Positions 63,684 to 64,000 of a stretch of 64,000 bases of DNA are shown here, one piece after another (the stretch's first letter is position 1; each line of letters starts with the position of its first letter). Source of the stretch: a plasmid; NCBI RefSeq assembly GCF_054482595.1, contig NZ_JBTHVH010000004.1. The stretch is one strand, 5' to 3'. The translations under genes were made by a program, and so were the position numbers. The notes below the pieces were generated by a model. The model was not told the origin of the DNA. It worked only from the letters and a program-made list of their open reading frames with translations, and did no database searches.

Positions 63684-64000
63684 ACACCAGAACGTATTGA
63701 ACAAATTTTGGAATTTTCCGAGGGTAGTAACCCAAGCGAAGCAATGAGTCTTAGAGCTGACGAAGTTGCTGTACTGGCACGTATTGGAAAGGCAGTTATG
63801 TCGATTGCGCCTGTTTATCAGTGCGAGTTTTGCCACCATGACGCAACCGGGCAACTTCAGTGGCACTGGGAAGATGTGAACAAAGCTTTTTATGATAAAT
63901 ACGATCCAGACAGACGCGGAAGACGTCGAATCCTCTATACCGCCCCGCCGATGCCTTTAGTTTCGGCTGACCTGCTTAACATGGCTTCATCTGCTATTGA
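63684..64000 (+). CDS. Partial ORF of unknown function, open from the IS26 junction to the window end
   Basis: Hand translation ...PERIEQILEFSEGSNPSEAMSLRADEVAVLARIGKAVMSIAPVYQCEFCHHDATGQLQWHWEDVNKAFYDKYDPDRRGRRRILYTAPPMPLVSADLL...; not in the ORF track. Confidence 0.3.

Follow-up and report, generated by a model that had tools for sequence, protein, structure and literature searches.

The window analysed here, a 64,000-nucleotide stretch of plasmid DNA, ends on its right with a complete IS26 followed by a gene segment that runs past the last base. The features of this end are, in window coordinates:

62450..62862, minus strand: 5'-truncated resolvase gene (tnpR-type serine recombinase, Tn3 family) forming the left flank of IS26; its ORF (62450-62935) runs into IS26
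62863..63682, plus strand: complete IS26, 820 bp, with the 14-bp inverted repeat GGCACTGTTGCAAA at 62863-62876 and 63669-63682
62926-63630, plus strand: IS26 transposase ORF (IS6-family model, 2e-82)
63624..63683, plus strand: stop-free in-frame stretch in the right end of IS26, a hypothetical fusion leader with possible starts at TTG 63636 and GTG 63678
63684..64000, plus strand: remnant of an IncHI2 backbone gene, codons 18-122 of the 203-residue annotation (10-114 of the 195-residue one), running past the window
63744..63746, plus strand: first in-frame ATG of the remnant (Met38), read from the sequence
63810..63950, plus strand: codons for residues 60-106, belonging to module B, a small predicted β-hairpin/helix/β-strand domain
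63822..63839, plus strand: codons of the CEFCHH motif (C64-E-F-C67-H68-H69), read from the translation
63957..64000, plus strand: start of module C (LVSADLLNMASSAIEDLL...), recognized from the translation and from homologues with module C only, and cut by the window edge

The first-pass annotation had described a frame that was open from the IS26 boundary to the window edge for more than 100 codons. Its openness to the edge was borne out, as 63684-63998 is stop-free (105 codons plus 2 bases), but its start point was not, as the frame is already open from 63624, 59 nt inside IS26. The remaining two plus-strand frames of the segment are closed by 13 and 3 stops, and the CEFCHH motif that had been pointed out is indeed encoded, on the plus strand. 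The annotation had also named stop codons or a lack of homologues as signs against its proposal of a 5'-truncated backbone gene, and we encountered neither; bases 63683-64000 proved to be the interior of an IncHI2 CDS, at 100% identity.

This match covered 318 of 318 bases in at least 1,080 plasmid records, and the window shares the reading frame of the annotated gene. Large conjugative plasmids accounted for 950 of the 1,083 matching records, and the hosts of the matching plasmids include Escherichia, Salmonella, Enterobacter, and Klebsiella. Since the two matching plasmids that we inspected were typed as IncHI2A, MOBH, and MPF_F, and since repHI2 lies ~5 kb from the gene in intact plasmids, we assigned the gene to the IncHI2 backbone. 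In pSTM6-275 the segment corresponds to L001:8001-8318 and falls within a CDS at 7951/7975-8562, annotated as WP_001572415.1 (203 residues) or WP_000491822.1 (195 residues); examples of the gene are B0X74_RS01450 of pSTM6-275 and CA696_RS27985 of pEGY1-MCR-1. The translation of the remnant equals residues 18-122 of the 203-residue protein, whose numbering we use throughout. That the gene had been called unknown was apt, as it is a hypothetical protein in every record inspected and is matched by no Pfam or NCBIfam model.

The two annotated lengths reflect two candidate ATG codons separated by a run of A residues. In the second major IncHI2 lineage, which is of the Enterobacter type (443 records, e.g., pDR25-1), this run is one base shorter, which places the 203-residue start out of frame there and leaves the 195-residue frame as the only one common to both lineages. 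The intact gene is thus predicted to encode 195 residues; several prophage homologues begin at a residue aligned with Met14. Between the gene copies of the two lineages we counted five synonymous and three non-synonymous differences, which weakly suggests a real, constrained gene.

Intact plasmids carry the gene at the end of a set of four genes in one orientation, the others encoding a 254-residue hypothetical protein, a methyltransferase-like protein, and an 87-residue hypothetical protein. The methyltransferase-like product (253 residues), encoded two genes upstream of the intact counterpart of the truncated gene, matches N6-adenine DNA methyltransferase models, and it was the only cluster protein with a match in PADLOC, there also to methyltransferase models. 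Its gene (L001:6812-7573 in pSTM6-275), part of the cluster that the window lacks, appears to be an orphan. The reference plasmids, from which the downstream synteny was read as the window stops at codon 122, have a terminator-like hairpin 3' of the cluster, then the gene of an 806-residue protein with Ig-like domains, and then repHI2. The cluster is a conserved but dispensable part of the backbone that has been repeatedly eroded by resistance regions, since the sequence across the window breakpoint is uninterrupted in 1,080 of 1,083 records and 80% or more of the cluster is kept in 1,035 of 1,090, the others having assorted breakpoints. In pSTM6-275, for instance, it is the first gene of the cluster that is truncated by IS26.

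The element at 62863-63682 is an IS26 by its 820-bp length, its 14-bp terminal inverted repeats, and its single IS6-family transposase, with 99.8% identity to the IS26 annotated in pSTM6-275. To its left, the match of serine-recombinase models to the resolvase portion beyond IS26 starts only at about model position 60. To its right, IS26 cuts within codon 17 of the backbone gene, leaving base 63683 as the third position of codon F17, and it stands in place of the first 50 nt of the intact gene under the 203-residue annotation or the first 26 nt under the 195-residue one. Because the 195-residue frame is the shared one and several homologues start at the Met14 position, the loss of true coding sequence would amount to 11 to 26 nt, to which the ribosome-binding site and everything upstream must be added. 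The window copy is accordingly an incomplete CDS: 5' of the remnant it lacks its start codon and ribosome-binding site, the three upstream genes of the same orientation are missing as well, and we found no further IncHI2 backbone DNA in the window.

We found no 8-bp target-site duplication at this IS26, whose flanks (GGCGAAGC on the left and CACACCAG on the right) come from unrelated genes. A simple insertion was rejected on both grounds, the lack of a duplication and a left flank that is an unrelated, truncated resolvase gene; since IS26 here joins two unrelated sequences with no 8-bp duplication, IS26-mediated deletion or recombination is the indicated origin. Such junctions arise from intramolecular replicative transposition, which produces an adjacent deletion, or from recombination or cointegrate formation involving two IS26 copies. 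At the left, the window likewise begins in resistance-region DNA (1-6793), so that this region is longer than 63 kb and has its other boundary beyond the window. In the sequence of events that we propose, the IS26 at the right edge of this region would have come to abut codon 17 by one of these two mechanisms, and the three upstream genes with their promoter would have been lost in the same event. Both deletion and recombination would fit, as the other backbone boundary lies beyond the window; as a sign of an intramolecular partner, the 8-mer CACACCAG was sought in both orientations beside the other IS26 ends of the window, and none of them is flanked by it.

The exact IS26/gene junction had no record in PLSDB (about 72,000 plasmids) or among 5,426 complete E. 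coli genomes. For the left junction, between the truncated resolvase gene and IS26, the top matches to a 400-bp query were two joined pieces spanning 535 bp, and they therefore represent a different junction. A comparable case was found in the E. coli plasmid p727A3-179K (CP100063.1), where a resistance region likewise ends in an IS26 that abuts the same gene in 5'-truncated form. However, the breakpoint there lies 58 bp further into the gene and the orientation of IS26 relative to the gene is opposite to that in the window, which makes it an independent event. IncHI2 plasmids are described as frequent carriers of complex IS26 arrangements (PMC6206278).

Taken with the intact locus, these observations make it very probable that the segment is the body of a conserved IncHI2 backbone gene, decapitated by IS26 through deletion or recombination and in all likelihood silent. 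It is an ordinary gene remnant in a multiresistance plasmid, and the gene itself is already in the databases as a hypothetical protein. The junction marks the right-hand boundary of the resistance region of this plasmid, which IS26-mediated deletion or recombination would have set while eroding the backbone cluster, and the breakpoint between the IS26 end and CACACCAG, being absent from PLSDB and from the complete E. coli genomes, could serve as a lineage marker for the plasmid.

Searches with the full-length protein gave little by way of family assignment. Pfam returned no match even at E-values up to 10, NCBIfam and PADLOC scans returned none, and PHROGs gave only weak matches to phrog_60 and phrog_660, which are families of unknown function. 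A PDB sequence search gave noise (best E-value 0.03), Foldseek found nothing at an E-value of 1e-3 or less among viral structures, and there was no significant structural neighbour, solved or predicted. Sequence searches nevertheless found relatives, though few: a word-indexed search placed them in 121 clusters, and an exhaustive HMMER search of 1.84 billion proteins gave 323 representatives at E-values of 1e-3 or less. Pairwise mapping of these relatives delimited four modules:

Residues ~14-56: N-terminal helical module
Residues ~57-106: module B, PVYQCEFCHHD..LQWHWEDVNK.FYD.YD..RRG.RRILYTAPP
Residues ~104-140: module C, SADLL..AASAIEDLLTNKDRSGAGVW.D.P..LRRAA
Residues ~150-203: module D, outside the window, ...AMLxRLYxECDTGERRGNGSQSGVAMPSW.TVEAARLLLGVK

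In both searches only the IncHI2 cluster itself had all four modules together at full length. Each module also occurs singly in small proteins of enterobacterial mobile elements, where its partners are Ead_Ea22 N-terminal domains, DUF551, or a dATP/dGTP-pyrophosphohydrolase domain, Pfam domains that lie outside the shared modules. We examined three contexts of such homologues: a Raoultella prophage, where the homologue lies two genes upstream of a small gene and a putative integrase (a weak Arm-DNA-binding match); a Salmonella element with ICE-like genes (ParA, DnaB, TraR, DUF2857, AcaB, and a topoisomerase); and Klebsiella phage 5 LV-2017, in which the homologue bears the annotation EaA protein and adjoins EaD and DNA methylases. 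By these comparisons the intact protein is made of four short modules that have been combinatorially shuffled among "Ea"-type accessory proteins of lambdoid prophages and an ICE-like element. Module B is the best conserved part, with W79 and R99 invariant and Y62, Q63, D81, and Y102 nearly so, and AlphaFold2 modelled it with confidence (pLDDT ~97 for residues 61-100, and 88.6 when module B was modelled alone).

Could the frame be a chance ORF in non-coding backbone DNA? At 105 codons, and with no start codon at its 5' end, it is short enough to raise the question. However, the chance of 105 stop-free codons is ~0.003 given the base composition of the segment itself, and identity to an annotated CDS over the whole segment, homologues that include chromosomal prophage proteins at 55% identity, and the confident structure prediction all speak against it; the identity and the homologues refute this reading, and we give it practically no credence. 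The CEFCHH motif invites a different question, as it could form a zinc or other metal site (a CxxC..H knuckle) and so make the product a small metal-dependent nucleic-acid-binding protein or nuclease. C64, C67, and H68 are kept in most close module B homologues, and a further histidine, H78, is present in WHW. Among the homologues the motif reads CEFCHH in 31, CEFCHA in 8, CEFCHQ in 4, and CEFCHY in 3, so that H69 is freely replaced; C67 is replaced by Thr in three homologues and C64 by Ser in one, and more distant members of module B have no Cys or His at these columns. Residues 61-69 are moreover predicted to form a single β-strand (pLDDT ~97), in which C64 and C67 would point to opposite faces, judging by the secondary-structure string, and thus offer poor chelating geometry, and no zinc-finger family was matched in Pfam or NCBIfam. 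A zinc knuckle has four conserved Cys/His ligands in turn geometry, and neither the conservation nor the predicted strand geometry agrees with this, so we rejected that candidate; CEFCHH is unlikely to be a zinc knuckle, and we think a metal-dependent protein quite improbable.

The other question is whether the remnant is still expressed, either as an IS26-led hybrid that starts at TTG 63636 or GTG 63678 on transcripts reading through from the transposase gene, or as a shortened protein from Met38 at 63744, in which case modules B to D would be active. The frame is open from 63624 and contains the TTG and GTG in frame, the IS26 transposase gene runs in the same direction and stops 53 nt before the junction, and only 3-9 native residues would be missing if the true start were Met14 or Met9. 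Annotators also chose the Met38 start, giving a 166-residue CDS immediately next to IS26, in the similarly IS26-truncated CP100063.1. On the other side, we found no sigma-70-like promoter in a scan of 63300-64000, none of the three candidate starts has a convincing Shine-Dalgarno sequence at suitable spacing, and the native promoter and operon are lost. The same scan gave no terminator at the junction either, and an Rfam scan of 63000-64000 returned nothing. We therefore consider expression a possible but unlikely outcome, and the remnant is most probably an unexpressed pseudogene.

The modular build of the intact protein recalls lambda Ea22, which PMC10834534 describes as an oligomeric early protein that favours lysogeny, is mosaic, with C-terminal domains that can be exchanged, and has no known molecular target; PMC7093339 also presents it as a pro-lysogenic protein of the exo-xis region. 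The Ea22 variants described in PMC10834534 are small and helical or coiled-coil, and their mosaic build resembles that of the IncHI2 protein. In addition, module D is 70-85% identical to the C-terminus of many prophage proteins that contain the Ead/Ea22-like domain PF13935. The likeness is one of build and of the C-terminus of these PF13935-containing relatives rather than of similarity to lambda Ea22 itself, and the PF13935 model gives no match to the IncHI2 protein; in the relatives this domain covers the N-terminal part, outside the shared module. A second set of relatives comprises prophage proteins with DUF551 (PF04448) or PF04447 and the EaA protein of Klebsiella phage 5 LV-2017, which have the N-terminal helical module, B and/or C in common with the IncHI2 protein at 35-70% identity. 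The genes of the DUF551 and PF04447 relatives are in early or accessory prophage regions, and DNA methylases adjoin in the Klebsiella phage. The IncHI2 protein lacks both domains, which are C-terminal additions in P0010, P0017, and P0035.

In the prophage proteins P0035, P0036, and P0059, module B (as CEFTHA) is fused to a PF04447 dATP/dGTP pyrophosphohydrolase domain, the position of which we checked in P0035 and took from precomputed annotation for P0036 and P0059. Phage MazZ is a dATP/dGTP pyrophosphohydrolase that inhibits host restriction enzymes (PMC10834534). A literature search on the function of P22 eaA/eaD found nothing relevant. The association with a methyltransferase gene recurs in the IncHI2 cluster and in Klebsiella phage 5 LV-2017, and it may hint at a role in entry into new hosts.

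With low confidence, we suggest that the intact protein serves mobile elements in a dispensable accessory role, making protein-protein contacts through its helical segments and small modules, and that it is not an enzyme. A bolder reading would place the intact gene in an undescribed modular "Ea-type" accessory class of temperate phages, ICEs, and large conjugative plasmids, with module B as a new small fold that has no solved relative and with action early after host entry (e.g., in countering host defence or in taking over the host), the window copy possibly being an IS26-led fusion; we regard this as doubtful. For the unexpressed remnant of a dispensable backbone gene that we favour, the wider point is that a protein found on more than 1,000 sequenced IncHI2 plasmids has had no family assignment and yet shares its modules with prophage Ea-type proteins. 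The confidently predicted small domain without a solved relative (module B) is of mild interest in its own right.

The rest of the window bears further marks of IS26 activity. The IS26 at 16989-17808 is the only copy in the window with an 8-bp direct duplication (CTTCTGGT on both sides), which makes it a simple insertion; the absence of duplications at all other copies is consistent with extensive IS26-mediated rearrangement. At 56908-57726 lies an 819-bp element with IS26-type terminal repeats and an intact, diverged IS6-family transposase (plus strand). With a nucleotide identity to IS26 of only 78%, it is not IS26 itself, so that the window holds seven IS26 copies and one IS26 relative, which may be of the IS1006/IS1008 type. 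A solitary IS26-type 14-bp repeat (GGCACTGTTGCAAA) at 47524-47537 has no IS26 body behind it; it is a leftover end or else terminates a different IS6-family element.

Left of the last IS26, a Tn3-family transposon remnant (58413-62862) consists of the truncated resolvase gene, a gene for a 983-residue transposase (59496-62447, minus strand; 1313 bits), and, just past the end of the latter, an IS110-family transposase gene (58413-59417, minus strand). Further left are floR (53730-54944, minus strand), tet(A) (51856-53130, plus strand), and an ISKra4-family transposase (48056-49450). The resistance-region DNA at 1-6793, with identical segments in numerous plasmids, IncHI2 among them, includes aph(6)-Id, aph(3')-Ia, and the gene of a C45-family peptidase.
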